From the sequence record NZ_CP118918.1: a stretch of 64,000 nt of DNA; one strand, written 5' to 3'. Shown in pieces: positions 2,380 to 23,730 of the stretch; the stretch's first letter is position 1; the number at the start of each line of letters is the position of its first letter. The DNA is from a plasmid. Both the position numbers and the translations under genes were made by a program. Below the pieces are notes generated by a model. The model was not told the DNA's origin, searched no databases, and saw only the letters and a list, made by a program, of their open reading frames with translations.

Positions 2380-2631
2380 ATGAGCAGGATCACCGTGTAC
2401 ACCAAGCCCAACTGCGTGCAGTGCACCGCGACGTTCAAGGCGCTCGACAAAGCGGGCATCACCTACGCGAAAGTCGACATCAGCGTCGATGCCGAGGCCC
2501 GCGACTACGTGATGGCCCTGGGCTACCTGCAAGCCCCCGTCGTGGTGGCCGGCGATGAGCACTGGAGCGGCTTCCGACCCGACCGCATCTCCGAAGTCAC
2601 GGCTCCAGCACTCGCGCAGCTATCCATGTAG
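2380..2631 (+). CDS. nrdH: NrdH-redoxin (glutaredoxin-like), copy 1
   Basis: MSRITVYTKPNCVQCTATFKALDKAGITYAKVDIS...LGYLQAPVVVAGDEHWSGFRPDRI. CVQC redox motif and NrdH length. Confidence 0.8.
   Translation: MSRITVYTKPNCVQCTATFKALDKAGITYAKVDISVDAEARDYVMALGYLQAPVVVAGDEHWSGFRPDRISEVTAPALAQLSM
2392..2590. repeat. inverted repeat arm 1 (nrdH copy), ~95% nt identity to the reverse complement of 16700-16900
   Basis: Nucleotide stretches accaagcccaactgcgtgcagtgcaccgcg... and ttcaaggcgctcgacaaagcggg.atcacctacgcgaaagtcgacatcagcgtcgat occur in both copies, in inverted orientation. Confidence 0.8.
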
Positions 2632-2663
2632 CGGTACAAACACTAGCGGGAGAAGAAGACCTC

Positions 2664-3872
2664 ATGACAGTCGTGGCGACCCCGTTTCAGGTCGGGGAAC
2701 ACGTGGTAGACGATGTGCATTGCCTTGAGGGACAACAGATTCTCCGAGAGGCCAAAGCAGCGAGATCACGCCCGCTGTGTTTGTGCCAGCCCGCCGGGGT
2801 ACAGATGTATATCGCTGCCGCTGGCGACAGCCTCATTGTCAAACGAATGCCCGGCACGGCGGCCGCACATGACCATCGGTGCCGGTCGTGGCTGCCTCCC
2901 AGCGAGCTATCGGGCTATGGCGCCGTTGCCGACCGGTCGATCGTTGACAACCCTGCCGACGGAACAACCACGCTGCGACTGGGATTTTCGCTGTCGAAGT
3001 CCGGCAATCGTGCCGCTCCAGAGCCTTCCGGATCGCCGGCAAGCGCGGTGCAGTCGGACGGCAACAAGTTATCCCTACGCGCTGTGCTGCACTATCTCTG
3101 GGATGAGGCGGAACTGACGACGTGGCACCCGGGCTTTGCGGGGCGGCGGCCGTGGGGTGTGGTGTACCGCCGGCTCCGGGATGCCGCCGATGGCAAGCTA
3201 GTCCGCAAAAGCCCCTTCGCCGCATCGTTGTTCATCCCGGAGCCCTTCTCGGCCGACTGCAAGGCCGAGATCGAGCAACGCCGGATTAAGGCTTGGGCTC
3301 CAGCGCGTAGACAGCCGGGGAAGCCCACCAAATTCCTGATCGGCGTGGGCGATATCAAGGCGATTGAGCCAGCCGCCCACGGGTTCAAGATGCAGGTCCG
3401 CCACCAGCCGGGCCACCCCTGGTTTCTCGATGAAGACCTGTACCGAAAAATGACCAAGCGCTTCGCCACAGAGCTGGAACTCTGGCAGATGGCTGATGCA
3501 GGTGACGTGCGGTTGGTGGCGGTAGCTACCTTCTCCGTGTCTCGGGCTGGTTACGCCAACGTAGAACAACTCTCTTTGATGACGACCGATCACAACTGGC
3601 TACCCTTCACCAGCGATGCCGAGCGCACCCTGCTGACAACTGCAATCGCAGATGATCGGTGTTTCCGGAAGGTATTGCCTTACAACGGGAGTTCCACAGC
3701 CTTGGCCTCTTTAATCTTCACCGACACCGCCCCGGCGATAGCCGCATTCATCGATCGCTGTGGAGGCGAGGACGACGACGACGACGAATCGATCGCGGGG
3801 CTTCCGGTCTGGAACTGGCGTACCGATGAAGATATGCCGGATTTGCCGTCACCTCTCGACGGTTCGGAATGA
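2664..3872 (+). CDS. hypothetical protein (402 aa), acidic DDDDDE C-terminus
   Basis: Continuous high-GC3 ORF. Its stop overlaps the ATG of the Dam-like gene at 3869 (ATGA). Confidence 0.5.
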   Translation: MTVVATPFQVGEHVVDDVHCLEGQQILREAKAARSRPLCLCQPAGVQMYIAAAGDSLIVKRMPGTAAAHDHRCRSWLPPSELSGYGAVADRSIVDNPADGTTTLRLGFSLSKSGNRAAPEPSGSPASAVQSDGNKLSLRAVLHYLWDEAELTTWHPGFAGRRPWGVVYRRLRDAADGKLVRKSPFAASLFIPEPFSADCKAEIEQRRIKAWAPARRQPGKPTKFLIGVGDIKAIEPAAHGFKMQVRHQPGHPWFLDEDLYRKMTKRFATELELWQMADAGDVRLVAVATFSVSRAGYANVEQLSLMTTDHNWLPFTSDAERTLLTTAIADDRCFRKVLPYNGSSTALASLIFTDTAPAIAAFIDRCGGEDDDDDESIAGLPVWNWRTDEDMPDLPSPLDGSE

Positions 3873-4081
3873 CCCCTTACCAGGTTGGAACAAACGCATT
3901 GTCAGCAACTGCCTTACGTCCGCCGTTCGCCTACTTCGGCGGTAAGCAGAAGATCGCCGTGGACATCGCCGAACTGCTAGCAGGCCATAGCCACTACGTG
4001 GAACCGTATGCTGGCGGACTCTCAGTATTGCAACTATCAATCACTATGGCCGTCCACTCACCCGAACCTGATGCCACGTGA
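3869..4081 (+). pseudogene. D12-class (Dam-like) N6-adenine DNA methyltransferase, N-terminal 70 aa only; disrupted by an IS21 remnant
   Basis: PPFAYFGGKQKIAVDIAELLAGHSHYVEPYAGGLSVL is the canonical Dam-family N-terminus with SAM motif I. The ORF terminates after 70 aa where istB-derived sequence begins. Confidence 0.7.
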
Positions 4082-4413
4082 ACAGCGTTGCGCCGGACCC
4101 CATTGGGCCGTCAAATCAGACATCATTCAACTGACTCTTGAGACAAGAGCTGGGCTACATGGAACTGGATCGCCGCGGCGCCGAGCTGCTGTTCCAGGTG
4201 CTCACCGAACGCGAAGAGAAAGCCTCGGTGGCCATTGCGTCAAACGAAAGCTTCTCCGGGTGGACCAAAACGTTCACCGACCCACGGTTGTGCGCAGCCA
4301 TCGTCGACCGACTCACCTTCGGCGGCAACATCATCGAAACCGGCACCGACTCCTTCCGCCTAGCGCACACCCGCGCCAAGACCAGCAACCAGAACCAGCC
4401 AACCGGTGACTGA
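4082..4413 (+). mobile_element. IS21-family remnant: C-terminal fragment of the IstB helper ATPase (coding 4138..4413)
   Basis: ELGYMELDRRGAELLFQVLTEREEKASVAIASNESFSGWTKTFTDPRLCAAIVDRLTFGGNIIETGTDSFRLAHT matches the IstB C-terminus. No istA and no IstB N-terminus are present. Confidence 0.7.
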
Positions 4414-4972
4414 GGATCTGCTCATCAAGCAGATCAGCTGCACCAGCGCTCCTCCGCCATGAGCCTCCACGGACCCCTTGCTAGGTAACCAGCTCGGCAG
4501 CATTTCCGGTTGCTGGCGACGGTTCAGCCTCCCAGACAACGCACATGGGCAGTGTCCCAGTATCGAAGAACTCGCGAGCCGCTTGAAGCATCACACCGTG
4601 GTCGACCAAACACCGAGGAAAGAAGCCGACCGTGGCATCACCGCGGGCGAACTCCACTTCACCGCCGCCGGCATCACCATCTCCCACACTGTGAAGCGGC
4701 GATTGGGATCGATCGTTGTCGGCAAACAGCAGCAGCCCGCCGCTTTGATGCCCCACCCCCAGCGACAAGGTTCCCGCCGAGCCAGCCACGCTCACCAACA
4801 CCGGCGCAGACCCTGATTTCGCCAGTGACTCAAGACGAGACTCCAGCTCTTCAGCATCGTTGACGTGCACTTCCTGGTCATCCCAACGGAGCAACATTCC
4901 TCAATTATCCGTGAACGCGATCAAAGCGCCACCCGCTCCTCGAAGCACACCAACTCGGCGTCAGCTGCCCGG

Positions 4973-5040
4973 GTGACTCCCAAATTCGTGAGCACAATCG
5001 CCTCCAAGGACACCCTGGCGACTCCGAAATTCGTGATCAA
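4973..5040 (+). promoter_or_regulatory. pair of 20-bp direct repeats GACTCC(C/G)AAATTCGTGA upstream of the 5101 gene
   Basis: 4973-4994 GTGACTCCCAAATTCGTGAGCA and 5019-5040 GCGACTCCGAAATTCGTGATCA, 18/20 identical, 46 bp apart, 60-130 bp upstream of the start codon. Confidence 0.4.
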
Positions 5041-5100
5041 ACGACTCCCGAATCAACGATCAAAACCAGCCGCAATCAGCGCGGAATAGGGCTTCCGCAC

Positions 5101-5541
5101 ATGTCGTACCCGCAGCGGACGATGGGGTACATGAACGAGAACAACAGCAACCGGTGTGTGATTCGCATTCTGGGTTTAGTTGACGGGACGCCAACCGATT
5201 TCGACGGCCAGTATGTGGTTGAGTACGACCCGAGCAGGACCGGCACGCAGCCAGTGACAGGTAAACCCATGCCGGTATTCCATCTGGTGACCACCCCCGA
5301 TATCAGTCAAGCGACGCGGTTCACTCCCGACGAGACGGTCGACCTGTACCGCGCCGTAGACCAACGTAACCCGATCCGGGCTGATGGTGAACCGAATCGC
5401 CCTCTCACTGCGTTCAGTGTGGAGACCGACACCCTTGCGGCGGCGCTGCCGCCTGCGGGATGGCACGTCGATCCGCACAATTCGCGCTACTGGCGCTGGT
5501 GGGACGGTACGGCCTGGACCAGCCATATCGCGGCGCGATGA
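5101..5541 (+). CDS. hypothetical protein with C-terminal DUF2510-like motif
   Basis: The C-terminus AGWHVDPHNSRYWRWWDGTAWTSH resembles the actinobacterial DUF2510 signature (W..P.....RYWDG..WT). Confidence 0.5.
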   Translation: MSYPQRTMGYMNENNSNRCVIRILGLVDGTPTDFDGQYVVEYDPSRTGTQPVTGKPMPVFHLVTTPDISQATRFTPDETVDLYRAVDQRNPIRADGEPNRPLTAFSVETDTLAAALPPAGWHVDPHNSRYWRWWDGTAWTSHIAAR

Positions 5542-5598
5542 TTCGGCAGTAGCGCAGCCGGGGACGTTCACGGCGTCGAGCTGCGTGTTCACAGGTTC

Positions 5599-8500
5599 CT
5601 ACCCACCTCGGCTGAATCCCTCGTCACGGTGAGCGGCGTTCCACATGCGGGTGTGGAGATCATGGGCGGTGGTGTTGCGCTGCTGGGCTTTTCGGTGGCG
5701 TTGCAGGGCGGTGGTGATGGCGGGTGTGTGGTGGTCGGGGTGTAGTCCGGCGGCTTGGGTGAGGGCTGCGTTGCTGTCGGGGCTGGCGTCGAAGTGGTTG
5801 ATGCGGCCGGTGGCGGCGGTGAGCACTGGCGACCACCGCAGTTCGGTGTGTAGCAGTTTCAGTAGTGGGGCGGCCGGTGGTGGTGGCCAGGTGGCGGTGT
5901 TGGTGTCGAGCAGGATGATCCGGGCGTGGGCGGTTGCCGCGGTCTCGGTGAGGTCGGCGATCGTTTCGGGGGAAATGTGTTCGGCGCGGTCGATGACGAC
6001 GATGGTGCCCGGTGCGCTGTCGTGCAGGTCCAGGGTGGCGGCGTCGATGACTGTGTTGGCGATCGGGGACAGGTCCGCATTGTCACAGATGGTGGCGGGA
6101 GCAGCCCAGATCAGCGGACGCTGCGCGTCGTGGGCGGCGCGTTCAAGGTGTTTCATCATGGGCAGCAGCGCGGCCCGGTCGGAGGCGTGCGCGGCGGTCA
6201 GCACGAACGGTGCATCGGTAAGCCGTCGTAGGCGGTCGGTGTCGATGTCGGGGTGTTCGCTGATCGGCAGTCGCTCTTGGAAAGCATGTTGACCGGCAGC
6301 GTCGAGCACCCGCAGTTCGGTGTCGATGCGGGGCAGCAGCTCGGTGATGTGTTCGGCGGTGCTGCGCTGTGCACGCGCGAATGCCTGTGCTGCGGCGAGC
6401 TCGGCGCGGTGGAGCTGGTCGCGCAGCGCTGCGCGGTCGGCGCGATGTCGGGCCAGCAGTGTGTCATCGTCGGCGCGGCATCGGCGCAGCAGTGCGTCGG
6501 CGTCGGCGTGGGTGACGATGTGCTCGCTGCCGCCGGCCGCGGCGGCGCGGGCTGCGGTGGCTTCGTCGAATGCGGGATGGAACTGTTCGGCGGGGCTGGT
6601 TGGGGGCAGCTGGTAGCTGGTCAGGAAGTTCAGGTGCTGGGTGGCCGAGGCGATATCGAGGGGGTCGGCGTCTGGGTCGGCGCGCAGGGTGTCGAGTTCG
6701 GTGCGGGCGTGGCCGATGAGTTCGAGGGCTTCGGCGTAGGTGGTTTCGGCGTGATGCCATTGGTCGAGCACGGCTTCGACGCGTGCCAGGAAAGGCCGGT
6801 CGGCGTCGGCCGCGGCGCGCATGCGCCGCAGTTCGTCGGTGGCGGCCAGGACGTGGGGTCCGCCACCGGCGGTCACGTGGGCGGCCAAGGCGCGTACCTG
6901 GGCGTCGGCGGCGGCGTAGCGGTCGCGCAGCGCGTGGACGTCGGCGCGGTGGGCGGCCAGCGCGGCGGCGGGGCTGGGCCGCACGGTGCTCAGGCTGTCG
7001 AAGTCGATCCCTGTATCGGGGGTGAAGTAGTCGTCGGCGTGCTCGGGTGGGGGCAGTTGATCGTCGGGGGCGGTGGGCTCGGTGAGGTCGTAGTCGTCTA
7101 GTCCGAGTGCGGCGGCAAGGTTGTTGGGGTCGGCCAACACGTCGTCGTGAGCGTGCTGGCGCCCCGGTGGTGTGTTCTCGATGTCGGGGTGCAGATGGGC
7201 GAGTTCTTCGTGTTCCTCCGGTGTCAGGGGCGCGGTGTCGGGCAGGGGAATGTCGTGGTCATAGGGGTCGGCGGTGGTGAACACCTCGATCGAGTAGGTG
7301 AGCAGTCGGGCGTACTCGTCGGGCCGTAAATGGTGGGTCAGGTGGGCGTCGGCGTCATAGAGATGTTCGGCGGCCACATGCAGCAGATCGCGCGGTGTCC
7401 ACTGGTCGGGGTCGGCGTTGCCGATCGCGGACACCAGTGCGGGGAAGGCGGGATCGGCGGCGATGGTTTCGGCCAGTTCGGTGCCGAACACGGTGTGCAG
7501 ATCGGGTAGCCAGTCCGGGCGCAGCCCACCGTTGGCGGTCTCCAACACCGCTGGTGTGAGGGTGCCGCACAGTCGCCACCACAATGCGGCGGCGGGCAGT
7601 TCGTCGGGCAGCGGGCGCTCAGCGGCGACGGTGCGTACGAGTTGGGTGATGTTGACTCCGGTGCGCGCGGCCGCGGCCAGGTGGTGGGCCAGCTGCGGCC
7701 AGTAGGGGTCGTGGCGGATGTGCGGGTTGATGGAGTCGATGAGGGTGTCGTAGCGGTTGGTGGTGGCATCAGCGCCGATGAGTTCGGCGGCGCGTTGTTC
7801 GAGTCCGCGTTGGGCGGCGCGGGTGCGGGCGGGGTATTGCTCGGCGCCGGCGATGCGGGTGTCGTTGTCCTCGACGGCGGTTGCGGCGCGATACACGGCC
7901 AGCTCGGCAGCCAGTTCAAGGTCTGTGCCGACCAGCGGTCGTGCCCATCGCGGCGCGGTCGCTGCGCTCCACTGGCGTGCGGTGGCGGTGACCTCGGCGG
8001 CCAGGTCGGTGACCCGCTGTGCGCGGGCGGCCAGGTAGGTGTGCCACTGCGGGTCGGCGGCCAGACGTTCGGGGATGGCGGGCAGCCAGGGCAGTGGGCC
8101 GGCGCCACCGGAGTGTGCACCGGTCGGATCGAGGCGCCAGTCGATGACCGCGGCTGGGTCGGCGGCGTTGTCGAATCCGCCGGAGGCGACCACTTTGTCG
8201 AGCCGTTTGAGGGGGTGGATGCCGGCGGCGGCGATCAACGCGAGGTGCTGGCGTAGCACCGGCCAGGCGGTAGCGGTGGTCAGTCCGGGCACGAGTTTCT
8301 CGGCGTGGGAATCCAGCTCGGCGTGCTGGGCGGGGCTCAGGCGTGATTCGGCGGCGGTGCCGACGGCGTGGGCGTACATCTGGGTGGCGGCGGCCAGGCG
8401 GGCAGCCGGGTCGGTGGCGGCGCGGGCCGCACTGGTGGCCGAGACTTGCGCAGCATCGCGGGCCAGGGCACGGGTCAATACGTCCACGGCGGTGTCGGGG

Positions 8501-11500
8501 TGGGTGGCTTTCGGCGACAGCACGCGGTGGGGGTCGTGCTCGGCGGTGGAGAAGTAGATGTGGTTGCCGTGCACTCCGCGGGTCAGCGCGGTGTACACCT
8601 GTTGGCGGGTGAGTTGATCGGAGCCCACGGTGTGGCAGCGGTAGCGGGCGGTCGCGCCTTGGGTGGCGTCGATGGTGCGGGCGTAGCCCAGGGTGACGTG
8701 GGAGCGGACGTAGGCGGCGGGCAGCCGTAGATGTGCGTGTGACTCCAAGTGCGTGACGGTGATCGAGCCGTCCGGATCGACCTCGGTGACTTCCCAGCGG
8801 TAGCCGTTGCGCACGAAGTCGGTGGCACCCAACGCGAGGGTGCGATCGTTGTGTTTGGTGAACACGAGGTCCCCGACGCTGGCGCGGGCCCCGGCCATCA
8901 ACACCGCTTCGATGCCGGTGGCGTGTTCTCCGAGTTCGGTCAGCCGGTGCAGCCGGGCGCGGTCGTTGAGTTCAGAAACCAGCTCGTGGGTCGGCGCCAA
9001 CAGCAGCGAGTGCTTGTCCTCAGCGATGTCGGATTGCCATGCTTGGAACGCCATATCGGAGGCGGCGGCTTGGGTGCCGACATGCACGCGCTGGGCATCG
9101 AGATAGAACGCGATCCCTGATGGGTCGCCGTCGCGCAGCGCGAGACCGGCTTGGGCTTCGGAGGCCGAGGCGAACCGCATCACCTGGGACAAGGTGATCG
9201 CCCCGTGCTCGTGGGCCAGGTCGCGCAGCACACCGCCGGCGCTGATCGAGGACAGCTGTTTGTCGTCCCCGACGAGGCGCACGCTGGCGCCGCGGGCCAA
9301 GGCGACCGCGATCATCGACGCCAGCGCCAACGTGCCGGCCTTGCCGGCTTCGTCCACGATGATCAAGGTGTTCTCATCGATCGCGTCGTACCACTGCCGG
9401 GCGGGGTCGCCGGGGGAGATGTCGGGATTGTCGGTGAGCCAGTTGAACTTATCGAGGGTGTCACCGACTTCGACGTCGATTTCTTCGCGCAACAATTGCG
9501 CGGCACTGGCGCTGGGAGACAACCCGATGACGGTGCCCCCGGCGCCTTCCCAAGACCGGGCCAGCGCGGCCGTGGCGGTGGTTTTCCCCGACCCGGCCGG
9601 GGCCAACGCGAGCATCACGCGCTGCCCGCGGCACGCCATTTCGCGGACCAGTTGGGCTTGACCGGCGTTGAGTTCGCGGCGGTGCGCGGCCTGGGCGAGT
9701 AGCTCAATTTCGACATCGGCGGCGGGCACGGTGCGGCCGTCGCGCAGTGTGGCGGCGGCCAGGATTTGCCGCTCAGCGGCCAGGATTTCGGGGCTGGTGT
9801 AGGTCTGCGTCCCGGCTTGGCGGTACACGCTGGTCCCGTCGCGGCGCCGCAACACCGCGGGCTCACCGAGGTCGGTATCAGGACTGGATGCGTGTCGGAT
9901 GCTGCGCGGTTCGGTCAGGGCGGCGTCGGTGATGAGTTCGGCGATGCCGTCGATTCCGGCGTGCCCGGTGACGCGGACCACCCGCAATGCTTCGGCCAGT
10001 ACATGGGTGCGGTTCCAGGTGGACCGCGCTGCGGAGACGGTGGCGATGACCTGGGCGGCGCGGGCGTTGATCCACCCTGCGGTGACCTCGGCGGGTGTCG
10101 TGGTGCGCCCGGCCAAGGAGCGGGCGATCATCGCGTTGACCGCTTCGTCGCTGCCCAGCAGGCCGACGGCTTGGGTGCGCCATTCTGCGCGTTGCTCGGC
10201 CAGCGATCGGGGTTCGTGTTTGGCGTCGCGGGTGGCCAGGGTGGCTTGTTGGAACATCGCGATCGACTCCGGGGTGGTCGGCTCGCGGCCGTGGGCGGCC
10301 TGAAATTTCTTGGCCAGCACCGCATATTCGGCGTCGATGGCGGCGCGGCGTGAGGACCACAGTTCGTTGAGTTCGCGGCTGACGCCGACGACTTCGCGGA
10401 CCTCGCGCTTGCCTTCGCGGGCATCGCCGCGGGCGGCGAACCGCATCCCCAGCTCGTCGCCCAGGTAGGCCTCCAGGCGTGAGTTGTACAGCTCGGAGGC
10501 CGCGACGGTGGAGGCGTAGAGCGGGCGGCCATCGAGGGCGTACCAGCGGGGGATGCCGTCGGTGCCGCGGGCGCGGACCTTGTTGGAGATCGCGACGTGG
10601 GTGTGCAGGCCGGGGTCCGAGGCGCGGGTGTCGCGGTGGAGAAATTCGGCGGTGATGAAGCCTTCGGTGTCGACTTGGGCGATTCCTTGGGCGCCGATGC
10701 GGGTGTAGGCGGCCTGATCTTGCAGGAAGTCCAGGGCGTCCTGGACGGCCTTGCGGTGGCATTCCTCGATCTGTTTGGCGATCGGTTCCGGGCACAGCGC
10801 GTACAGTGCGGACACGCTTTTGACCGGGGTGAAGGTCATGTCGTAGCCGGCGACCGAGGTGGTTTGGTCGCGGGTGCCGCGGGCGATGAACCCGGTCAGT
10901 TCGCGCTCGTCCAGGGGTGCGCGGCGGTGCTGTTCTTCGAACATGTCGGTGGCGATGTCGGTGCGCATCTGCGCCCGCACTGTCTCGTCAATGGCGGCGT
11001 TCCAGTGCGCACCGACCGACAGGTTGTGATCCCGATACGCCTCAGCGAGCCGCTGCTGCAGCTCGGTTTCGCCGGCGTTGACCCGGAACGGGCGACCGAG
11101 GGTGGTCGCGGTCAGCGCTGAGTTTTTGCGTGCCCCTTGGGCAATGAGCTGCTTGGTCAGCGCTGAGGCGTTCGGGTGCACCCCCAGCCCGAACAGGGCC
11201 TTCATCTGGTCCTCGGTGACCTCGGAGCCTTCGGCCACTGACCACAGTCGCTCTCCGGCGTCGGTACGGGTCCAGTTCTGCGAGCCCGCGGACAAGCCGG
11301 CCAGTCCGCGTCCGCCCCAGCGGCCCGGTGTCTCGCCCTTGGAGGAGTAGTAGTCGCCCAACGATTCCGGGCCATGGGTGCGGTCGTGGGCAGCCACCTG
11401 CCGCACCAGGTACAAGTACCCGGAGCCAGCGGTGAGCTTGTGGATGCCCGCATTCACCTGCCCAGCGCACCGATTTCTCACGACGAAACCAAGGCTGCTT

Positions 11501-11511
11501 TCCGCCAGCAT
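5599..11511 (-). CDS. traA: MobF-family conjugative relaxase/helicase (TraA/TrwC-like), 1970 aa
   Basis: N-terminal relaxase motif IHKLTAGSGYLYLVRQVAAHD...LGDYYSSKGETPGRWGGRGLAGL. RecD-like helicase P-loop LAPAGSGKTTATAALARSW. Long Ala-rich C-terminal extension. Single uninterrupted frame. Confidence 0.85.
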   Translation of the reverse strand: MLAESSLGFVVRNRCAGQVNAGIHKLTAGSGYLYLVRQVAAHDRTHGPESLGDYYSSKGETPGRWGGRGLAGLSAGSQNWTRTDAGERLWSVAEGSEVTEDQMKALFGLGVHPNASALTKQLIAQGARKNSALTATTLGRPFRVNAGETELQQRLAEAYRDHNLSVGAHWNAAIDETVRAQMRTDIATDMFEEQHRRAPLDERELTGFIARGTRDQTTSVAGYDMTFTPVKSVSALYALCPEPIAKQIEECHRKAVQDALDFLQDQAAYTRIGAQGIAQVDTEGFITAEFLHRDTRASDPGLHTHVAISNKVRARGTDGIPRWYALDGRPLYASTVAASELYNSRLEAYLGDELGMRFAARGDAREGKREVREVVGVSRELNELWSSRRAAIDAEYAVLAKKFQAAHGREPTTPESIAMFQQATLATRDAKHEPRSLAEQRAEWRTQAVGLLGSDEAVNAMIARSLAGRTTTPAEVTAGWINARAAQVIATVSAARSTWNRTHVLAEALRVVRVTGHAGIDGIAELITDAALTEPRSIRHASSPDTDLGEPAVLRRRDGTSVYRQAGTQTYTSPEILAAERQILAAATLRDGRTVPAADVEIELLAQAAHRRELNAGQAQLVREMACRGQRVMLALAPAGSGKTTATAALARSWEGAGGTVIGLSPSASAAQLLREEIDVEVGDTLDKFNWLTDNPDISPGDPARQWYDAIDENTLIIVDEAGKAGTLALASMIAVALARGASVRLVGDDKQLSSISAGGVLRDLAHEHGAITLSQVMRFASASEAQAGLALRDGDPSGIAFYLDAQRVHVGTQAAASDMAFQAWQSDIAEDKHSLLLAPTHELVSELNDRARLHRLTELGEHATGIEAVLMAGARASVGDLVFTKHNDRTLALGATDFVRNGYRWEVTEVDPDGSITVTHLESHAHLRLPAAYVRSHVTLGYARTIDATQGATARYRCHTVGSDQLTRQQVYTALTRGVHGNHIYFSTAEHDPHRVLSPKATHPDTAVDVLTRALARDAAQVSATSAARAATDPAARLAAATQMYAHAVGTAAESRLSPAQHAELDSHAEKLVPGLTTATAWPVLRQHLALIAAAGIHPLKRLDKVVASGGFDNAADPAAVIDWRLDPTGAHSGGAGPLPWLPAIPERLAADPQWHTYLAARAQRVTDLAAEVTATARQWSAATAPRWARPLVGTDLELAAELAVYRAATAVEDNDTRIAGAEQYPARTRAAQRGLEQRAAELIGADATTNRYDTLIDSINPHIRHDPYWPQLAHHLAAAARTGVNITQLVRTVAAERPLPDELPAAALWWRLCGTLTPAVLETANGGLRPDWLPDLHTVFGTELAETIAADPAFPALVSAIGNADPDQWTPRDLLHVAAEHLYDADAHLTHHLRPDEYARLLTYSIEVFTTADPYDHDIPLPDTAPLTPEEHEELAHLHPDIENTPPGRQHAHDDVLADPNNLAAALGLDDYDLTEPTAPDDQLPPPEHADDYFTPDTGIDFDSLSTVRPSPAAALAAHRADVHALRDRYAAADAQVRALAAHVTAGGGPHVLAATDELRRMRAAADADRPFLARVEAVLDQWHHAETTYAEALELIGHARTELDTLRADPDADPLDIASATQHLNFLTSYQLPPTSPAEQFHPAFDEATAARAAAAGGSEHIVTHADADALLRRCRADDDTLLARHRADRAALRDQLHRAELAAAQAFARAQRSTAEHITELLPRIDTELRVLDAAGQHAFQERLPISEHPDIDTDRLRRLTDAPFVLTAAHASDRAALLPMMKHLERAAHDAQRPLIWAAPATICDNADLSPIANTVIDAATLDLHDSAPGTIVVIDRAEHISPETIADLTETAATAHARIILLDTNTATWPPPPAAPLLKLLHTELRWSPVLTAATGRINHFDASPDSNAALTQAAGLHPDHHTPAITTALQRHRKAQQRNTTAHDLHTRMWNAAHRDEGFSRGG

Positions 11512-11696
11512 CCGAACGGGCCGTGACCAAACCGTGACCTAAGTGCAAGAGGTGTGTGGGACCAAGCCAGGCTGGAAAGCAACGATGCAGGTCAACAGGG
11601 GTGAGACGGTGGTGAGGGTGAAATCAGGGGTGAGTGGGTGGCTGCGGAAGAAGGGAAGCGTGATTGCGTCGTAAGGGATGGCTAGCATCCGGAAAC

Positions 11697-12308
11697 ATGG
11701 CTAAAGCAACGACGAAACATGCAGTGAAGCAGCGGGTTCTGGAGGCGCGGCGCGCCGAGAAGGCCGCACGGGAGGCGCGCGAGGCGGCCATTGTCGACGG
11801 TCTGTCGGAGTTTCTCGCCGAAGTTGACCGTGCGGCGGCGGTGGGGATGAAGCTCGAAGAGCAGGTAGCGGCGGCGCGCACGAAGGCCGCCGAACGTGTC
11901 GAGCGGATTGAACGGGAGACCGAGGAACGAATCGCCACGTTGACCGAGGCGGCGCGGGAGGAAACGGCGCGGTGTGAGCGGGCGGCCGGTGAGGCTGTGA
12001 TGCGGCTACGGGGGCAGGGTGAGACGGTGGCGGCCATTGCGAGCCAGACGGGTCAGAGCCAGAACCGAGTGCGCGACTTGGGCAAGCTGGCGGTCGGCTC
12101 GCAGGACGCAGCTGAGGCGGCGGACCCTGACGGGGCGCAGGCAGGGCAGGCTGGGTCCATGCAGGACGGGGGAGCCGGCGCTGAGGATGCCGCGGTGGTG
12201 TCGGCCAGTGGAGTGGACGCAGGCACTGCTGGTGGAGAGCTCGGCGACAGGGAGGCGACCGACGCTGAGGAGCTGACGGTAGGCGCGGCCGCGAGCCTGA
12301 GCGCGTAG
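11697..12308 (+). CDS. hypothetical coiled-coil protein with possible HTH (GETVAAIASQTGQSQNRVRDL)
   Basis: ORF 11664..12308, likely start MAKATTKHAV. Arg/Glu/Ala-rich helical N-terminal half and acidic C-terminus. Confidence 0.45.
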   Translation: MAKATTKHAVKQRVLEARRAEKAAREAREAAIVDGLSEFLAEVDRAAAVGMKLEEQVAAARTKAAERVERIERETEERIATLTEAAREETARCERAAGEAVMRLRGQGETVAAIASQTGQSQNRVRDLGKLAVGSQDAAEAADPDGAQAGQAGSMQDGGAGAEDAAVVSASGVDAGTAGGELGDREATDAEELTVGAAASLSA

Positions 12309-12322
12309 CGAGGCTTCGGCGG

Positions 12323-12850
12323 GTGGGCGCTTTGGCGCGGGAGTTGGCGGTTGATCCGGACCGCGACATGGCAGAGGTGGCAAGGTTTTTCAGCCGCGTG
12401 GTCGCAGGGCCGGGTCGCCAGGACTGCTGGCTGTGGACCGGTGCGATCGGTGATGACGGTTACGGTCGGTTCGCGATTCGCCGCGACGGCAGGCTGCGCA
12501 TGGTGCGTCCACCGCGGTATGCCCTTGCGGTGGCCGCAGACGGTGCGGCACTCGATGGGTACGTGCGGGCGCTGCACGAGTGTGATGTGCCGATGTGTGT
12601 TCGTGTGATCACTGCCGACGAGTTGCGCGACGGGGTGCGGCCTCATGTGGTCGGTGGGACGCAGCGGGAGAACATGGAGAGGATGGCGCGGGCGCGGCGC
12701 GGCGGGGGATCGCCTGCGGTGATCGCGCGCCAGGCGGGTGTGAAGGCACGGCGGGAGCAGGCGCTGGCGTTGCGTGCGGCGGTGCGTTCCGGCTGGGACG
12801 GCGCGGCGGTGGAGGCTGCGCTGTTGGGCGGCCAGCCTCGTCTATGGTGA
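12323..12850 (+). CDS. HNH endonuclease family protein
   Basis: CWLWTGAIGDDGYGRF...HECDVPMCVRVITADELRDGVRPHVVGGTQRENM matches the HNH pattern (CW.W.G....GYG.......H.CD...C.NP.HL..GT...N). Confidence 0.7.
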   Translation: MGALARELAVDPDRDMAEVARFFSRVVAGPGRQDCWLWTGAIGDDGYGRFAIRRDGRLRMVRPPRYALAVAADGAALDGYVRALHECDVPMCVRVITADELRDGVRPHVVGGTQRENMERMARARRGGGSPAVIARQAGVKARREQALALRAAVRSGWDGAAVEAALLGGQPRLW

Positions 12851-12932
12851 GCCTTCGGTAGTTCTAGTCCGCGCGATGGCCTGCGGGACTGGCCCGGGTG
12901 GGGCGGTCCCGCAGGCGGTGGCGCGGATGGGG

Positions 12933-13157
12933 CTAGTGGTCGGCGGTGGTGGCGATGAAGGCCTCGGCGTCGGTGAGGTAGTAGTCGGCGTGGCGGGTCT
13001 GGTCGGCGGTGGCGTCGTTGGCCAGGAGAACGGTGACGGCGTAGTCGCGGGCCGAGAGGGCGTATTGGCGGCGGCGGTGGGGGTCGTCGGCGGCAGCGAC
13101 CGCGGCGTGGATGTCGGCTCGGGCGTAGGCCAGTGCTGCGGTGGTGGGGATGGGCAT
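12933..13157 (-). CDS. small hypothetical protein
   Basis: ORF with likely start MPIPTTAALAYARADIH. Weak support. Confidence 0.3.
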   Translation of the reverse strand: MPIPTTAALAYARADIHAAVAAADDPHRRRQYALSARDYAVTVLLANDATADQTRHADYYLTDAEAFIATTADH

Positions 13158-13546
13158 GATGGTTCTCCGTTTCGTGGTGTGACTTGGTGGTGCGCCGGTC
13201 GGCGCTGGGGTGCGGTCAACCGGGTGAGGGTGGGCGGTCAACCCCGAAGAGGCGGCGGCGGGTGGAGCAGGGTTTTCGGCCCGCGAGCGGCAGCGAGCTT
13301 GGTAGGGCCGAAAAGGTCACTCGGCCTGTGTAGGTCGACGTCGGTGTGGGTTGACCGGTCGGGCCCCCGGCCGGTTAGGCTGCGCCCCCTGCTGACGGTG
13401 TGAAGGTGAGGGGCTACGGATGCGCCCGCCGCGAGGCGGGCATCCGCGCCGCAGGCGCGCGGCCGAAGGGAACATGCGAATCGCGCAACAAACCCCGCAG
13501 TGAACCCGTTGTTGTGGCGGTGGCGGGCTCACAGCACGCGCGGGAG

Positions 13547-14074
13547 CTAGGTAGCGCTCTGTGAGGCCAGAATGGCGTGGCGCATGGCCGCTTTGGGGTC
13601 GACGGCGATATCGAGGGTGTAGACGATCAAGTCGGCAAGGCGCGGAGCGCGGCCGTCGATCTCGGCGGCTTCGGCGATGGCGAGTTCGCATGCGATGGCG
13701 GCCCGCACGTTGTCCCCGGCGAGGCAGTAGGCGCATCCGGCGATAGTCAGTGCCTCGACGCGGGCGCTGGATCGGAGTTGGCGCGCGAAGCGCGTCCATA
13801 GCGACGCACCGGCATCAGGGTCGTTCAGTAGGAGGGGGAGCATCGCGTCGCGCAACGCCGGGCTGGTGGTGATGATGATTGCGACGCGGCTGGCAAGGGT
13901 GCCGGTGGCCCGTCGGTGGCCGCTGAGGACGTTGGTGATGTATGTGAGGGTGTCGGGGACCGAGGGTGCGTGGTCGTCGCGGTTCACGGCGGGGTCGACG
14001 TGTTCGAATTCGCGCCGCAGAGCTTGGCGGGTATCGGAGTTGCTGTGGACGGGGTGTACGAGCCTGAGGGTCAT
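13547..14074 (-). CDS. hypothetical protein (start may be at 14164)
   Basis: Protein-like ORF MTLRLVHPVHSNSDTRQALRREFEH.... No motif recognised. Confidence 0.4.
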   Translation of the reverse strand: MTLRLVHPVHSNSDTRQALRREFEHVDPAVNRDDHAPSVPDTLTYITNVLSGHRRATGTLASRVAIIITTSPALRDAMLPLLLNDPDAGASLWTRFARQLRSSARVEALTIAGCAYCLAGDNVRAAIACELAIAEAAEIDGRAPRLADLIVYTLDIAVDPKAAMRHAILASQSAT

Positions 14075-14105
14075 GGTGTTCTCCGTTCGCGCGGGGTCGC
14101 GGATG

Positions 14106-14390
14106 TCAGCGAAGGCTCGCCAGGTGGTGGTTGAGGCGGGCGGCGACATCACGGGCGCGGGCATGGGGGTCGAGCGGATCGAAGTCGGTGCTGTAGGCGA
14201 TCAGGCGGGGGCCGCTGGGCGTCCAGAGGTTCACGTCCCCCAGTTCGGTTGCGTAGAAGGGGTTATGAGCCTCGGTCCGCTGCTGGTGATGGGCGGGGGT
14301 GATCCCGTCGCGTTGGTAGGCGTGGATGCGGGCGGTGGTCAGCGGGAGGGCGATGGGGCGCCCGGGGGTGGCGGCGTGCTGTTCAGTCAT
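14106..14390 (-). CDS. small hypothetical protein
   Basis: 94-aa ORF between the Dcm-like gene and 13547..14074. Confidence 0.35.
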   Translation of the reverse strand: MTEQHAATPGRPIALPLTTARIHAYQRDGITPAHHQQRTEAHNPFYATELGDVNLWTPSGPRLIAYSTDFDPLDPHARARDVAARLNHHLASLR

Positions 14391-14435
14391 CGGAACACTC
14401 CTTGGGTTGGGGGAGGGGGCTGGCAGTGCGGGCTG

Positions 14436-15977
14436 TCAGGTGGTGACGGTGGCGGGTTCGCCGGTCAGCGTTTCCACGACGAGTCCGACGAGATCGCGGG
14501 CGGCTGGTGGGGTGACGGCGTTGCCTGCCAGGCGGACTTGCTCTCGTCGGGTGCCGAGCATGCGGTAGTCGGTGGGGAAGTCCATCGCGGCGGTGATTTC
14601 GCGGGGCTCCAGCATCCGGAAGAACACGTCGTTGATGTCGATGTGCTGTGGCGGTGCGGGGGCGGGTCCGCTGGTGATCAGGCTGTGGCGCTCGACGGTG
14701 GTGACGGTGGGCAGGGCTTCGTTGGCAGGGGTGCTGCCGCCTTTGCCGTAGTAGCTCGTGATCAGGGGGCGGGGCTCGGTGGGGTTCCAGCGTCCGTGGA
14801 ACACGTCGCCGCGTGTGACGGGGGTGTAGACCAGGCCGTGGTGGTTGCCGGATGCGGTGACCGTCGAGAGTGCTTCGGTGGTGCAGCGGGCATCGCTGGA
14901 GCCGCCGCGGAGTTCGGCGATGAAGGGCGCGAAGGCGATGCCGTCGTTCTCGCGGGTGGTTCGGGTGGCGATGGGTTGATCGACGGCGACAGCTTCGTTG
15001 CGCCAGGTGCCTCCGGTCGGGACCAGCAGCGCGGTCTCGCTGCGCGTGGTCATGGTGCGTGTCGGCTGGTCGACCGGGGCGGCGTTCTTGCCGTCGCGTC
15101 CTTCGACGGGTACCAGCATGGGCTGCCAGTAGCGCTGGATTCCGGCGGCGATGCGGGCCATGGTCTTGTCGGCCAGGGGGCGGGTGCGCTCACCGATGCG
15201 TGTGCCGGTCAGTGACCAGTCGATGATGTCGGCGGCCGGGCGGTAGGTCGGCTCGATCACCTGGTTGCGGCACGCGACGTTGGGGCAGCGGTAGACGTAC
15301 TGGGCGCGGTACTTACCCCACGGTGCGCGGTCGGTGCGCTTGAAGCTCTGGACGGCGCGGACCGGTCCGCAGGCGGGGCACACCGCGTAGGGGGACACGA
15401 TCCGCTTGACGTCGGGGCGGGGATCGCCTGCGCGGGTGAAGATCGCATAGAACCGGTCTCTCGACTGGGGGGCGCCGCGACCGAGCAGTTGCGCATGCAT
15501 TGAGTTCAGGTAGACCATCTGGCCGACGTAGCCGATGGATTCCATTGCCATGCGCCACGCCTGGAAGGGCGGCCAGAACACCACGTCGACCACGTTCTCC
15601 ACGATCACGGCGCGGTACATGTGGTACTCGGAGAAGCGCACGACATCCCACATGGTGGCGCGGGAGCGCTCGGCGGCGGCCTCGGGGAGAATCTCGCCGA
15701 ACAGATCCGGTTGGGCGTCTTGACGTTTGCGGCCCTGGGCGATGCTGTGCTTGGTGCAGCTCGGGCTGGCCCACAGCAGATCAGTGGTGGGGAACAGACG
15801 CGGGTCAATCTGGGAGAGGTCGGCCTGAATGTGGTCGGTGTCAGGGTGATTGGCGCTGTGGGTTTCGATGGCCCTGTCCCAGTGGTTACTGGCGACCCTG
15901 GCCACGACGTTGTTGATCATCACAGCACCAGCCGTGGAGCCTCCAGCGCCGCAGTAGAGGTCGGTGATCGTCAGCAT
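14436..15977 (-). CDS. DNA (cytosine-5)-methyltransferase with unusual motif IV (PSCT instead of PCQ) and a Cys4 insertion
   Basis: Motif I DLYCGAGG, motif IV LWASPSCTKHSIAQG, motif VI VIVENVVDV, motif VIII QSRDRFYAIFTR, C-terminal GNAVTPPAARDL. Insertion CPACGP...CPNVAC. SD GAGAGGA 7 nt upstream of the ATG. Confidence 0.85.
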   Translation of the reverse strand: MLTITDLYCGAGGSTAGAVMINNVVARVASNHWDRAIETHSANHPDTDHIQADLSQIDPRLFPTTDLLWASPSCTKHSIAQGRKRQDAQPDLFGEILPEAAAERSRATMWDVVRFSEYHMYRAVIVENVVDVVFWPPFQAWRMAMESIGYVGQMVYLNSMHAQLLGRGAPQSRDRFYAIFTRAGDPRPDVKRIVSPYAVCPACGPVRAVQSFKRTDRAPWGKYRAQYVYRCPNVACRNQVIEPTYRPAADIIDWSLTGTRIGERTRPLADKTMARIAAGIQRYWQPMLVPVEGRDGKNAAPVDQPTRTMTTRSETALLVPTGGTWRNEAVAVDQPIATRTTRENDGIAFAPFIAELRGGSSDARCTTEALSTVTASGNHHGLVYTPVTRGDVFHGRWNPTEPRPLITSYYGKGGSTPANEALPTVTTVERHSLITSGPAPAPPQHIDINDVFFRMLEPREITAAMDFPTDYRMLGTRREQVRLAGNAVTPPAARDLVGLVVETLTGEPATVTT

Positions 15978-15995
15978 GGGGGGGTCCTCTCAACA

Positions 15996-16048
15996 ATGGG
16001 TGATGGCTATAGCCTACCACAGAATGGATGGTGATAGCCATCCAATAT
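15996..16048 (-). promoter_or_regulatory. conserved promoter/operator element (motif family 1) upstream of the C5-MTase gene
   Basis: In transcript orientation: ATATTGGATGGCTATCACCATCCATTCTGTGGTAGGCTATAGCCATCACCC. Contains an extended -10 like TGGTAGGCT and the palindrome GGCTATAGCC. About 45 bp are shared with 23731-23775. Confidence 0.6.
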
Positions 16049-16061
16049 GTGGGGCTTGTGG

Positions 16062-16610
16062 TTAGGTCAGCTGGTCAAATAGGTCGAGCTGAGCGTCGGC
16101 ACCGAGGTCGAGAACGCGGCGCAGCAGGGCGTCGGCCTGTTCGTGCATCTCTGTGGTGCGGCGGTAATGCTCGCGGTCTTCCTCGTCCGTGGGGTGGTAG
16201 CGAGAGCATGGTCGGCTGTGTGCGTTGGGGGGCGTGCGGGCGTGGGGGCAGCGGCACCACTGCCATGTGCGGTGCTGCTCGGCTCGGGTCGCGGTCAGCA
16301 GGTCAGCTATCTGGCTGCGCAGCGCGGTTGGCAGGGCCTGTCCGAGTCGTTGAATCTGAGTGGCGGTGACCGTGGCACGCGGGGGGCCGGAGCCGGGGCG
16401 GGGGCTGATGAACTTTGATCCGACGGTCCAGTAGCTGGTCATCCAGTCGGGTGCGCCGTGGGGGGCGGTCGGGCCGCTGGCGCCGCCTGCGCGGGCCAGC
16501 AGGGATCGCAGTGCGCGTTCCTCGAGGAATGCGTCCAGGAGGGCACTGCCTGATGATCTGCCGACGAACGCCAGGAGGTGGCGTTGGTCGGGTGTCAGCG
16601 TGGGGCGCAT
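16062..16610 (-). CDS. hypothetical protein (ORF extends to 16736 but would overlap nrdH; internal start MRPTLTPDQRH more likely)
   Basis: Protein-like frame with no recognisable motif. Confidence 0.35.
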   Translation of the reverse strand: MRPTLTPDQRHLLAFVGRSSGSALLDAFLEERALRSLLARAGGASGPTAPHGAPDWMTSYWTVGSKFISPRPGSGPPRATVTATQIQRLGQALPTALRSQIADLLTATRAEQHRTWQWCRCPHARTPPNAHSRPCSRYHPTDEEDREHYRRTTEMHEQADALLRRVLDLGADAQLDLFDQLT

Positions 16611-16644
16611 GCGCACAGCCTGACGAGGCAGTGCCGGTGGGCGC

Positions 16645-16911
16645 TCATGCGGGCATCGCTGTTGCATCGGGTGCGGATACCGCAGGGTTGCCGGCGGCCT
16701 TGATGCGGTCGGGTCGGAAGCCGCTCCAGTGATCATCGCCGGCTACCACGACGGGGGCTTGCAGGTAGCCCAGGGCCATCACGTAGTCGCGGGCCTCGGC
16801 ATCGACGCTGATGTCGACTTTCGCGTAGGTGATCCCCGCTTTGTCGAGCGCCTTGAAAGTCGCGGTGCACTGCACGCAGTTGGGCTTGGTGTACACGGTG
16901 AAGGTGGACAT
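16645..16911 (-). CDS. nrdH: NrdH-redoxin, copy 2 (aa 5-68 identical to copy 1, different C-terminal tail)
   Basis: MSTFTVYTKPNCVQCTATFKALDKAGITYAKVDISVDAEARDYVMALGYLQAPVVVAGDDHWSGFRPDRI. Confidence 0.8.
   Translation of the reverse strand: MSTFTVYTKPNCVQCTATFKALDKAGITYAKVDISVDAEARDYVMALGYLQAPVVVAGDDHWSGFRPDRIKAAGNPAVSAPDATAMPA
16698..16896. repeat. inverted repeat arm 2 (nrdH copy)
   Basis: Reverse complement matches 2392-2590 with a few mismatches. Confidence 0.8.
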
Positions 16912-16930: not shown

Positions 16931-16951
16931 GTGGATGGCTATAGCCTACCA
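16931..16951 (-). promoter_or_regulatory. motif family 1 instance upstream of nrdH copy 2
   Basis: GTGGATGGCTATAGCCTACCA. In transcript orientation AATGGTAGGCTATAGCCATCCAC, 25 nt upstream of the ATG. Confidence 0.55.
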
Positions 16952-20784: not shown

Positions 20785-20820
20785 TGTCTATAGCCTATCA
20801 GCAATGGTAGGCTATAGACA
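20785..20820 (+). promoter_or_regulatory. motif family 1 instance upstream of the PP-loop gene, with a perfect 13-bp inverted repeat
   Basis: TGTCTATAGCCTATCAGCAATGGTAGGCTATAGACA. SD GGAGAG follows before the ATG at 20845. Confidence 0.6.
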
Positions 20821-20844
20821 CCCTCACGGAGAGTTTGCCTACGA

Positions 20845-23674: not shown

Positions 23675-23730
23675 GGAGCGCAGTCCTTTCCTCGGATGCT
23701 GTGGGGTATCGACAGCTTTCGCTATGCGGA

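Follow-up and report, generated by a model that had tools for sequence, protein, structure and literature searches.

Two nrdH genes that lie in inverse orientation, 14 kb apart, on a mycobacterial conjugative plasmid share a 200-nt inverted repeat, which is very probably a gene-conversion tract between these paralogs. Within the window (the whole 64-kb stretch of plasmid DNA that was analysed) and its relatives, the mosaic structure of the recipient gene, at least three separate conversion events and homogenisation of the pair within individual plasmids are directly apparent; the case is an ordinary instance of the known concerted evolution of paralogs, not a new kind of system.

The inverted repeat and the two nrdH genes

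Self-comparison of the window returned the two arms (Table 1) as its sole inverted repeat of at least 60 nt. Both arms fall wholly inside nrdH coding sequences, whose coordinates agree with those of the original prediction, and they are 98% identical, above the ~95% estimated there. The mismatches, at arm offsets 44, 68, 158 and 170, leave exact stretches of 43, 23, 89, 11 and 30 nt. Identity ends abruptly on both sides, in each case within coding sequence (after codon 4 and after ...CCGACCGCATC), and outside the arms the flanks of copies 1 and 2 show background identity (~40%). At the protein level, the claimed identity of residues 5-68 was slightly overstated, residues 5-70 matching except for E60D, and the differing C-terminal tails were correctly described; copy 1 has a head of codons 1-4 (MSRI) and the tail SEVTAPALAQLSM. 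The concern, raised beforehand, that the arrangement might be an assembly artefact of the window is answered by its recurrence in independent assemblies, namely a 126-kb JGI contig (100% identity), M. obuense UC1 (99.98%) and the complete plasmid pSMC-8_2, which shows the same two-nrdH arrangement.

NrdH-redoxins are characterised by a CVQC redox motif and a C-terminal WSGFRP(D/E) motif; they are reduced by thioredoxin reductase and pass electrons to NrdEF, and their genes are associated in genomes with the class Ib ribonucleotide reductase genes nrdI, nrdE and nrdF. Both plasmid copies carry CVQC and WSGFRPDRI, exceed the 85.75-bit cut-off of TIGR02194 (GlrX_NrdH) and align over the full length with M. 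tuberculosis NrdH (PDB 4HS1/4F2I; E=2e-38) at ~80% identity, as counted from the printed alignment, from which they differ in being plasmid genes set in backbone operons and in having extra C-terminal tails. The divergent glutaredoxins referred to below as type A (djl-10 copy 1, p20-157661) reach 76 bits, under the family cut-off, and carry WAGHRPDR. No ribonucleotide-reductase domain was found in the open reading frames (ORFs) scanned at 0-17 kb, or, at 17-64 kb, in the 18 scanned out of 31 listed ORFs of at least 280 aa, a length class above NrdI size.

The suggestion that NrdH is unusual in a conjugative backbone proved wrong. Genes of this type were recovered from 197 plasmid records by DNA search and 372 by protein search, mostly from Mycobacteriales, and a published survey of mycobacterial T4SS/T7SS plasmids worked with nrdH as one of the genes that these plasmids widely share, its trees being incongruent with those of the T4SS and T7SS (Mortimer et al., 2017; PMC5381665). 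The gene and the plasmid type are the same as here; two copies per plasmid and intra-plasmid conversion are without mention in the accessible part of the survey.

Genetic context

Table 1. Features of the window discussed in the text
Feature	Position	Strand	Remarks
Four overlapping or tightly spaced genes 5' of copy 1	10-438, 425-1201, 1198-2034, 2031-2369	+	overlaps of 14, 4 and 4 nt
nrdH copy 1, 83 aa	2380-2631	+	TIGR02194, 105.3 bits; chimera of copy-1-type head, type-B core and copy-1-type tail
Inverted-repeat arm 1, probable conversion tract (recipient)	2390-2589	+	196/200 against reverse complement of 16702-16901
DUF1173 gene	2664-3872	+	PF06666, E=3e-116; starts 33 nt 3' of copy 1
Dam (D12 N6-adenine methyltransferase) remnant	3869-4081	+	PF02086, E=1.2e-4
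Foreign segment in place of ~850 nt of Dam	4031-5068		IS21 IstB fragment, ~4147-4418; Imm1 immunity-protein gene, 4481-4897 (-)
MobF/TrwC relaxase-helicase, 1970 aa	5599-11511	-	TrwC, E=1e-76; AAA_30, E=3e-50
Segment missing from pSMC-8_2	13177-14070		overlaps DUF4192-fragment ORF, 13547-14164 (-)
C5 cytosine DNA methyltransferase, 513 aa	14436-15977	-	PF00145, E=4e-21
Second copy of motif GGTAGGCTATAGCCATCCAC, upstream of C5-MTase	15999-16018	-	motif search
Hypothetical gene, 182 aa, directly downstream of copy 2	16062-16610	-	conserved there in all relatives
nrdH copy 2, 88 aa, canonical NrdH-redoxin (type B), probable tract donor	16645-16911	-	TIGR02194, 104.1 bits
Inverted-repeat arm 2 (probable donor)	16702-16901	-	4 mismatches to arm 1, all private to copy 2
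Palindrome-containing motif GGTAGGCTATAGCCATCCAC upstream of copy 2, putative promoter/operator	16931-16950	-	TANNNT-type -10 candidate included

Four close genes do precede copy 1, as had been described, the last of them with a weak HTH_20 match and separated from the copy-1 ATG by a 10-nt gap containing GGAGAG, but copy 1 does not end the operon, since DUF1173 follows on the same strand. Between the copies, the large relaxase, the C5-MTase and a truncated Dam gene adjoining an IS21 IstB fragment were all found where expected, together with DUF1173, Imm1, DUF2510 and a DUF4192 fragment; no HNH domain was detected in any ORF tested, contrary to the gene called there originally. Homology to the intact pSMC-8_2 gene covers only about the first 162 nt of the Dam remnant. 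The 182-aa gene is kept even in relatives with a type-A glutaredoxin at the copy-2 position. The promoter-like motif reported upstream of copy 2 was confirmed as a repeated motif, with five sites observed against none expected, and its copy-2 site is conserved in pSMC-8_2 and djl-10_1; judged from its sequence, it may act as a promoter.

Mosaic structure of copy 1

Comparison with ~15 related mycobacterial plasmids supplied the apparent unconverted state. In djl-10_1, M. vanbaalenii BC8_1 and GF69, two genes occupy the same positions and orientations as in the window, with a type-A gene as copy 1 and a type-B gene as copy 2, and the flanks of both window copies are collinear with these repeat-free relatives. 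The divergent type-A gene at the djl-10-type copy-1 position has 64% nucleotide identity in the core and shares the flanks and tail end; in the window, the core of copy 1 thus matches copy 2 at 98% but its own positional ortholog at only 64%. The surroundings of that core follow the opposite pattern: against djl-10 copy 1, the upstream flank of copy 1 has 74-79% identity and the tail 65%, whereas against copy 2 the values are ~39% and 47%, respectively, and homology to the djl-10_1 gene of type A in this position extends over the head, the upstream flank and the end of the tail.

These observations bear on two other origins of the repeat. Had nrdH recently been duplicated, in tandem or at a distance, and the ends then diverged, two genes with near-identical cores would result, but this origin is very improbable given that identity stops within a few nucleotides on both sides inside coding sequence and that the head, tail end and flanks of copy 1 are orthologous to the divergent type-A gene of djl-10-type plasmids; duplication and divergence cannot give a 98% core beside ~40% immediately outside it. 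The repeat might instead mark the seam at which two related elements, each with one nrdH, had recombined, and the backbones are indeed mosaic: the match to pSMC-4_1 ends at the relaxase, and between the window and pSMC-8_2 divergence is greater on the side of copy 2 than on that of copy 1. That origin is nevertheless exceedingly improbable, for synteny around both copies is conserved in plasmids with and without the repeat, and a seam would yield one hybrid gene, not two genes with a common internal patch. The original suggestion of a duplication or recombination junction between elements is not supported: the flanks are collinear with repeat-free relatives and the repeat is an internal patch.

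Separate events and concerted evolution

Transfers from copy 2 to copy 1 are seen on at least three separate occasions, in the window clade, in M. tusciae and in a 140-kb metagenomic plasmid (jgi140). The M. tusciae backbone is 96-99.9% identical to that of djl-10, yet its copy-1 core has no mismatch to its own copy 2 over ~216 nt, starting 3-4 nt ahead of the ATG and ending at ...CGCATC; because the window retains copy-1 codons 2-3, the 5' junctions are unlike and the events must be separate. The backbones of jgi140 and pSMC-8_2 are 98-99% identical, and four of the five differences between their copy-1 cores are exact copy-2 alleles (sites 83, 84, 155 and 188). The tracts accordingly differ in extent, covering coding nt 11-210 in the window, about -3 to +213 in M. 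tusciae and at least sites 83-188 in jgi140. Such discrete tracts, with abrupt ends, unrelated flanks and differing end points, are what gene conversion leaves behind. The three resolved events all run from copy 2 to copy 1, three being too few to establish directionality.

The cores group by plasmid and not by locus, paralogs being closer than orthologs: copies 1 and 2 differ within plasmids by 0, 1, 1, 4 and 5 nt, while same-locus cores differ between plasmids by 7-15 nt, a range that leaves out the close pairs window/pSMC-8_2 and pSMC-8_2/jgi140 (1-9 nt). Constraint at the protein level does not explain the identity of the cores, since many of the changes between plasmids are synonymous (8 synonymous and 7 non-synonymous differences separate the copy-2 genes of the window and M. 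tusciae).

Proposed course of conversion

The plasmid family carries two inverted glutaredoxin-like genes flanking the relaxase/methylase module, with type B at copy 2 and, when unconverted, type A at copy 1. In the window lineage, whose ancestral copy-1 core was presumably type A as in these relatives, non-reciprocal homologous recombination very probably placed the copy-2 core into copy 1, which kept the head, tail and flanks it had before and its place in the operon. The tract is bounded by the only two 12-13-nt blocks common to types A and B, TCACCGTGTACA (ITVYT) and CCCGACCGCATC (RPDRI); with a recipient of only 64% nucleotide identity, the first event would have been homeologous and delimited by these blocks. 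Conversion at this identity and with such anchors would be inefficient for RecA-type recombination. A RecA-type double-strand-break-repair or gap-repair reaction is the presumed chemistry. Once 200 nt of near-identity had arisen, later conversions repeatedly re-homogenised the pair, giving concerted evolution. The donor could in principle have been another type-B nrdH, on the host chromosome or a co-resident plasmid, instead of copy 2 of the same molecule. Type A, moreover, may not be the original copy-1 state: the djl-10 type-A core and the gene that M. neglectum has in the copy-2 position share ~98% identity, so copy 1 may have been overwritten more than once.

Inversion of the 14-kb segment

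Under gene conversion, the repeat would be a by-product that could allow a reciprocal crossover and hence inversion, stable inverted plasmids not being seen; the inverted isomer is probably disfavoured by selection because inversion would swap the downstream genes of the two operons. The original prediction proposed such inversion by homologous recombination, rightly as to the process and the potential substrate. It is unlikely, however, that the repeat works as an inversion substrate, with the relaxase/methylase segment flipping and the two isomers coexisting in nature. Each of the six crossover proteins that can be postulated is present as an exact sequence in public assemblies. Among them is the reciprocal pair P0002 (copy-2 head and copy-1 tail) and P0017 (copy-1 head and copy-2 tail), which occur in 36 and 24 contigs, respectively; these contigs show exactly both expected junctions with flanks identical to the window; one recombinant contig (L024) is a 10.7-kb SPAdes assembly at 25x coverage, and inversions accompany up to 50% of recombination events between tufA and tufB (PMC6735719). 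Against this, the fraction of recombinant index blocks declines as contigs get longer, from 36% (<2 kb) through 16%, 5%, 9% and 0% to 0% (>=20 kb) (z=-6.4, p=2e-10), which indicates misassembly for the ~60 short junction contigs. Among index blocks with a contig of at least 20 kb, recombinant genes account for none and parental genes for 79, so that the two orientations expected of a programmed inversion in well-assembled genomes do not both appear. The recombinant proteins are confined to automated Logan/ENA assemblies, with none in NCBI genomes, and many of their contigs have a coverage of 0.5-3x; the switch point lies inside the 89-nt exact stretch in 18 of 20 contigs, as chimeras of the de Bruijn graph predict. 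The plasmid variant in contig L025, with an insertion at 20944, is parental in SPAdes contigs of 121-127x, and the comparison with related plasmids that had been proposed found the parental arrangement in all eight further plasmids or long contigs that contain the two loci. Inversion is thus without support from long assemblies, though it may occur at low frequency.

A site-specific inversion switch was also considered and rejected, as the arms are a 200-nt coding segment and not a short recombination site, and no recombinase domain was found in any ORF scanned at 0-17 kb. Were the junction contigs real, which is unlikely, the repeat would cause the 14-kb relaxase/oriT/methylase module to invert reversibly and at a low level in natural populations of a mycobacterial plasmid that is widely disseminated; inversion would then swap the operon (T4SS-side versus motif-promoter-side) driving the DUF1173/Dam and the 182-aa/C5-MTase genes, and repeated conversion would sustain the very repeat that permits it.

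Relation to tufA/tufB and implications

The closest analogue of the plasmid nrdH pair is tufA/tufB of Salmonella enterica, an inverted pair that undergoes concerted evolution by RecA-dependent conversion and in which a tufA x tufB crossover gives an inversion that is viable, costly and absent from natural isolates (PMC5485169; PMC6735719). In both systems, paralogs in inverse orientation with few dispersed differences are kept alike by non-reciprocal recombination, the sequences (here, the nrdH cores) cluster within the replicon and a stable inversion is not seen. The nrdH pair differs in lying on a plasmid and not the chromosome, in its 200-nt tract versus 1185 nt, in a recipient that began as, or alternates with, a strongly divergent paralog (64% nucleotide identity), and in heads and tails that remain unlike.

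The plasmids thereby offer a natural series from homeologous to homologous conversion, comprising unconverted, fresh (0 mismatches), re-homogenised (1) and older (4-5) states. Conversion of nrdH also provides a concrete mechanism, one that could be among the causes of the incongruence between NrdH trees and plasmid backbones noted in the published survey (PMC5381665). As a practical lesson, short-read metagenome assemblies appear to manufacture chimeric "inversion junctions" at a 200-nt repeat, exact-sequence look-ups having returned ~60 such public contigs.

The nrdH Repeat and Its Two Genes

The inverted repeat shared by the two nrdH genes is a gene-conversion patch between inverted paralogs, a known kind of process, with copy 2 as probable donor and copy 1 as recipient. 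The coordinates originally predicted for both genes were confirmed, and a repeat search identified the 200-nt arms as the sole inverted repeat of at least 60 nt in the 64-kb window. The arms are 98% complementary rather than ~95% identical as first estimated, with four mismatches (offsets 44, 68, 158, and 170); the anticipated identity of protein residues 5-68 is likewise near-complete, broken by a single E60D substitution. Alignment with flanking sequence places the onset of identity after codon 4 and its stop at ...CCGACCGCATC, and beyond the repeat the two loci are unrelated.

Copy 2, which aligns with the M. tuberculosis NrdH of known structure (4HS1/4F2I; E=2e-38, ~80% identity) and exceeds the TIGR02194 cut-off, is by sequence a canonical NrdH-redoxin; the chimeric copy 1 passes this cut-off too, and the family assignment is unambiguous. 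The WSGFRP motif is part of the definition of NrdH.

Features of the window and of related loci (window positions unless a locus is named)
Feature	Position	Strand	Description
nrdH copy 1	2380-2631	+	83 aa, glutaredoxin fold
nrdH copy 2	16645-16911	-	88 aa, glutaredoxin fold
Repeat arm, copy 1	2390-2589
Repeat arm, copy 2	16702-16901
Gap, nrdH copy 1 to DUF1173	2632-2663		32 nt; ~275 nt in pSMC-8_2, pSMC-4_1, and jgi140
Segment missing from window	L001 6673-6905		233 bp between nrdH copy 1 and DUF1173; present in pSMC-8_2, pSMC-4_1, and jgi140
Dam remnant			about first 162 nt of gene, then 1-kb foreign piece with IstB fragment and Imm1 gene
TrwC/MobF relaxase			1970 aa, between nrdH copies
182-aa gene			conserved, between nrdH copies, after C5-MTase
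GGTAGGCTATAGCCATCCAC site	15999-16018	-
GGTAGGCTATAGCCATCCAC site	16931-16950	-
GGTAGGCTATAGCCATCCAC site	20806-20825	+
GGTAGGCTATAGCCATCCAC site	23726-23745	-
GGTAGGCTATAGCCATCCAC site	23752-23771	-
ORF with internal repeats	17290-18456	+	57-nt and longer units
Tandem units	17728-18182		two, 224-231 nt, 92% identity
Cargo region	33551-51235		P450-reductase fusion (1064 aa), second P450, flavin monooxygenase, acyl-AMP ligase, PapA-type acyltransferase, mycolic-acid cyclopropane synthase-like methyltransferase, ADH, alpha/beta hydrolase
Insertion in variant plasmids	11533		22 nt upstream of relaxase ATG; integrase + HTH_26 + 488-aa + TetR cargo element (L051, L054, L055)
Insertion in variant plasmids	20944		tyrosine recombinase and two large genes (L054, L057, L025)
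IS256-family (Transposase_mut) element	L024 6949-8381		in relaxase gene; 8-bp target duplication at window 8134-8141
Insertion, M. bacteremicum MAG	L007 10136-11629		~1.5 kb, between 112-aa gene and nrdH copy 1
Insertion, Mycobacterium sp. smrl_JER01	L012 18898-25512		~6.6 kb, splits DUF1173

Gene Conversion Within Related Plasmids

A relaxase-anchored scan of species-representative genomes and a plasmid database yielded ~15 informative relatives. In djl-10_1, M. vanbaalenii BC8_1, and Mycolicibacterium sp. GF69, both loci occupy the same positions and orientation as in the window, with a divergent glutaredoxin at copy 1 (type A, CVQC...WAGHRPDR) and the canonical NrdH at copy 2 (type B); the two types share ~45% protein and 64% DNA identity, and type A falls below the NrdH cut-off (TIGR02194). 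Copy 1 of the window resembles the type-A gene in its upstream flank (74-79%), in its first codons, which are common to both, and in its tail end (...AQLSM* vs. ...AQLSV*), whereas its core agrees with copy 2 at 98% identity and with type A at only 64%. The ends of the tract coincide with the only 12-13-nt blocks common to types A and B. This mosaic bears the signature of a conversion tract and speaks against the duplication or recombination junction between two related elements that had been put forward as an alternative origin of the repeat.

Conversion from copy 2 to copy 1 has recurred. The M. tusciae backbone is djl-10-like (flanks 96-99.9%), and no mismatch separates its copy-1 core from its own copy 2 across ~216 nt, a stretch that opens 3-4 nt ahead of the ATG. 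The 5' junction is therefore unlike that of the window, where codons 2-3 stay copy-1-type. A 140-kb JGI plasmid (jgi140) and a 77-kb ENA contig have backbones 98-99% identical to pSMC-8_2, and of the five sites at which the copy-1 cores of the JGI plasmid and pSMC-8_2 differ, four carry exact copy-2 alleles. Together with the window's own tract, the M. tusciae junction and these alleles resolve at least three copy-2-to-copy-1 events. Within plasmids, the two cores differ by 0, 1, 1, 4, and 5 nt, and same-locus cores of more distant plasmids differ by 7-15 nt, many of the changes synonymous; this distance pattern is one of concerted evolution. The window's four mismatches are all private to copy 2, and its copy-1 core looks like the ancestral type-B sequence of the clade. 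The case documents a series of naturally occurring conversion states on a plasmid.

The deeper history of the two types is less certain. The more distant plasmids p20-157661, an M. dioxanotrophicus plasmid, and pSMC-4_3 each have only one such gene, which is type-A-like and sits at the copy-2 position, with copy 1 absent, and a type-A gene with p20-like flanks occupies the copy-2 position in M. neglectum. The core of the latter is ~98% identical to djl-10 copy 1 (5 differences in 200 nt), a likeness which points, with less certainty, to movement of type-A sequence between the two positions as well. Reverse conversion, from copy 1 to copy 2, was considered for M. neglectum, but a native gene is more likely, given that the gene preceding it and the overlap with the one that follows are as in p20-157661-type plasmids. 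In the ancestor of djl-10 and the window plasmid, the type-B gene probably took the place of type A at copy 2 and brought along the motif-carrying region upstream of it.

Possible Inversion of the Intervening Segment

The original prediction held that the repeat could mediate inversion of the 2.6-16.7-kb segment. All six chimeric proteins hypothesized from crossover within the repeat were found by exact-match look-up, including P0002 (copy-2 head, copy-1 tail; 36 contigs) and P0017 (copy-1 head, copy-2 tail; 24 contigs), compared with 121 and 93 contigs for the parental proteins; among them, the recombinant contigs show exactly the two junctions that an inverted segment would have, and their flanks hardly differ from the window. 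The recombinant proteins are nevertheless confined to Logan/ENA automated assemblies, and when the indexed blocks are binned by longest contig, the recombinant share falls from 36% (<2 kb) and 16% (2-5 kb) through 5% and 9% to 0% (20-50 kb) and 0% (50-200 kb), with no recombinant against 79 blocks at ≥20 kb (length trend p=2e-10). Several recombinant contigs have 0.5-3x coverage, too low for assembly of a minority isomer, and the switch from head to tail lies inside an 89-nt exact stretch in 18 of 20. A plasmid variant with the mobile-element insertion at 20944 (L025) is parental in SPAdes contigs of 121-127x, as is every complete plasmid or long contig with both loci (the window, pSMC-8_2, djl-10_1, BC8_1, M. 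tusciae, GF69, jgi140, the 77-kb ENA contig, and a 126-kb JGI contig). A stable inversion is thus not supported, while rare inversion is possible. These observations argue that the recombinant-junction contigs are mostly assembly chimeras, a cautionary example for the use of public metagenome assemblies. Only L024 (10.7 kb, 25x coverage), the sole high-coverage contig with a recombinant nrdH junction, is left as a credible candidate for a truly inverted molecule. Searching metagenome contigs for a 68-nt core pattern gave just two loci, not enough for per-sample junction counts.

Proposed Mechanism

Bacterial gene conversion proceeds by repair of a double-strand break or gap off a homologous template. 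The mosaic structure, the several tracts with differing ends, and the within-plasmid homogenization are evident in the sequences, and would be explained if copy 2 served as template for repairing breaks or gaps in copy 1. The first event may have been homeologous and restricted to the conserved ITVYT- and RPDRI-coding blocks, with subsequent events relying on the 200-nt identity. By analogy with tufA/tufB, crossovers yielding inversion probably occur but would be selected against, as each would swap downstream halves between two operons. The tuf genes, likewise an inverted paralog pair, undergo RecA-dependent gene conversion (PMC5485169); up to 50% of their recombination events produce inversions, at a cost of 8% in growth rate (PMC6735719).

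Gene Context and Plasmid Spread

Between the nrdH copies lie, in order, DUF1173, the Dam remnant, the foreign piece, DUF2510, the relaxase, hypotheticals, a DUF4192 fragment, the C5-MTase, and the 182-aa gene; the HNH gene expected among them was not borne out, a domain search detecting no HNH domain in any ORF lying within 11.5-14.4 kb. Copy 1 is indeed preceded by four overlapping or tightly spaced genes, but does not end the operon as supposed, since DUF1173 follows 33 nt downstream. The motif noted ahead of copy 2 is real: GGTAGGCTATAGCCATCCAC, a 20-nt sequence including the perfect 10-bp palindrome GGCTATAGCC, recurs at five sites in the window (0 expected), ahead of genes that include nrdH copy 2 and the C5-MTase, and probably serves as a common promoter/operator for a plasmid regulon. 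This motif was used in place of a sigma-70 promoter and terminator scan, which found nothing beyond shuffled expectation over 1-18.5 kb and is uninformative for mycobacteria.

The view that nrdH is unusual in a conjugative backbone is contradicted by 197 (DNA search) and 372 (protein search) plasmid records with nrdH-like sequences, mainly from Rhodococcus, Mycobacterium, Gordonia, and Mycolicibacterium, and by Mortimer et al., who describe nrdH as common to a subset of mycobacterial T4SS/T7SS plasmids and its tree as incongruent with conjugation genes (PMC5381665). A domain scan of 18 of the 31 large ORFs (≥280 aa) between 17 and 64 kb, and of ORFs at 0-17 kb, found no RNR genes; plasmid NrdH proteins presumably work with host partners.

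The window is mycobacterial plasmid sequence. It matches the 126-kb JGI metagenome contig at 100% identity over the 27 kb compared and M. obuense UC1 contig LAUZ02000015.1 at 99.98%, and its relaxase is 100% identical to that of M. iranicum H39; the nearest complete plasmids are pSMC-8_2 (93.6%), djl-10_1 (86%), and pSMC-4_1. Dozens of public metagenomes from unrelated sources, such as human skin, TARA ocean, and many SPIRE sets, contain sequence ~100% identical to the plasmid (L024-L057), often at <3x coverage, and NrdH proteins identical to those of the window (P0001, P0016) are listed from a Mycobacteroides chelonae plasmid and Mycolicibacterium (NCBI/UniRef names). The plasmid is either very widely disseminated or a recurrent contaminant. 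The opposite end of the 11533 element is visible in L047 and L011. Contigs of several assemblies end at the tandem units, and the repeats of the enclosing ORF encode Cys-rich ...DGTICTNPNHGGG... sequence. The cargo region carries genes of lipid and xenobiotic metabolism.
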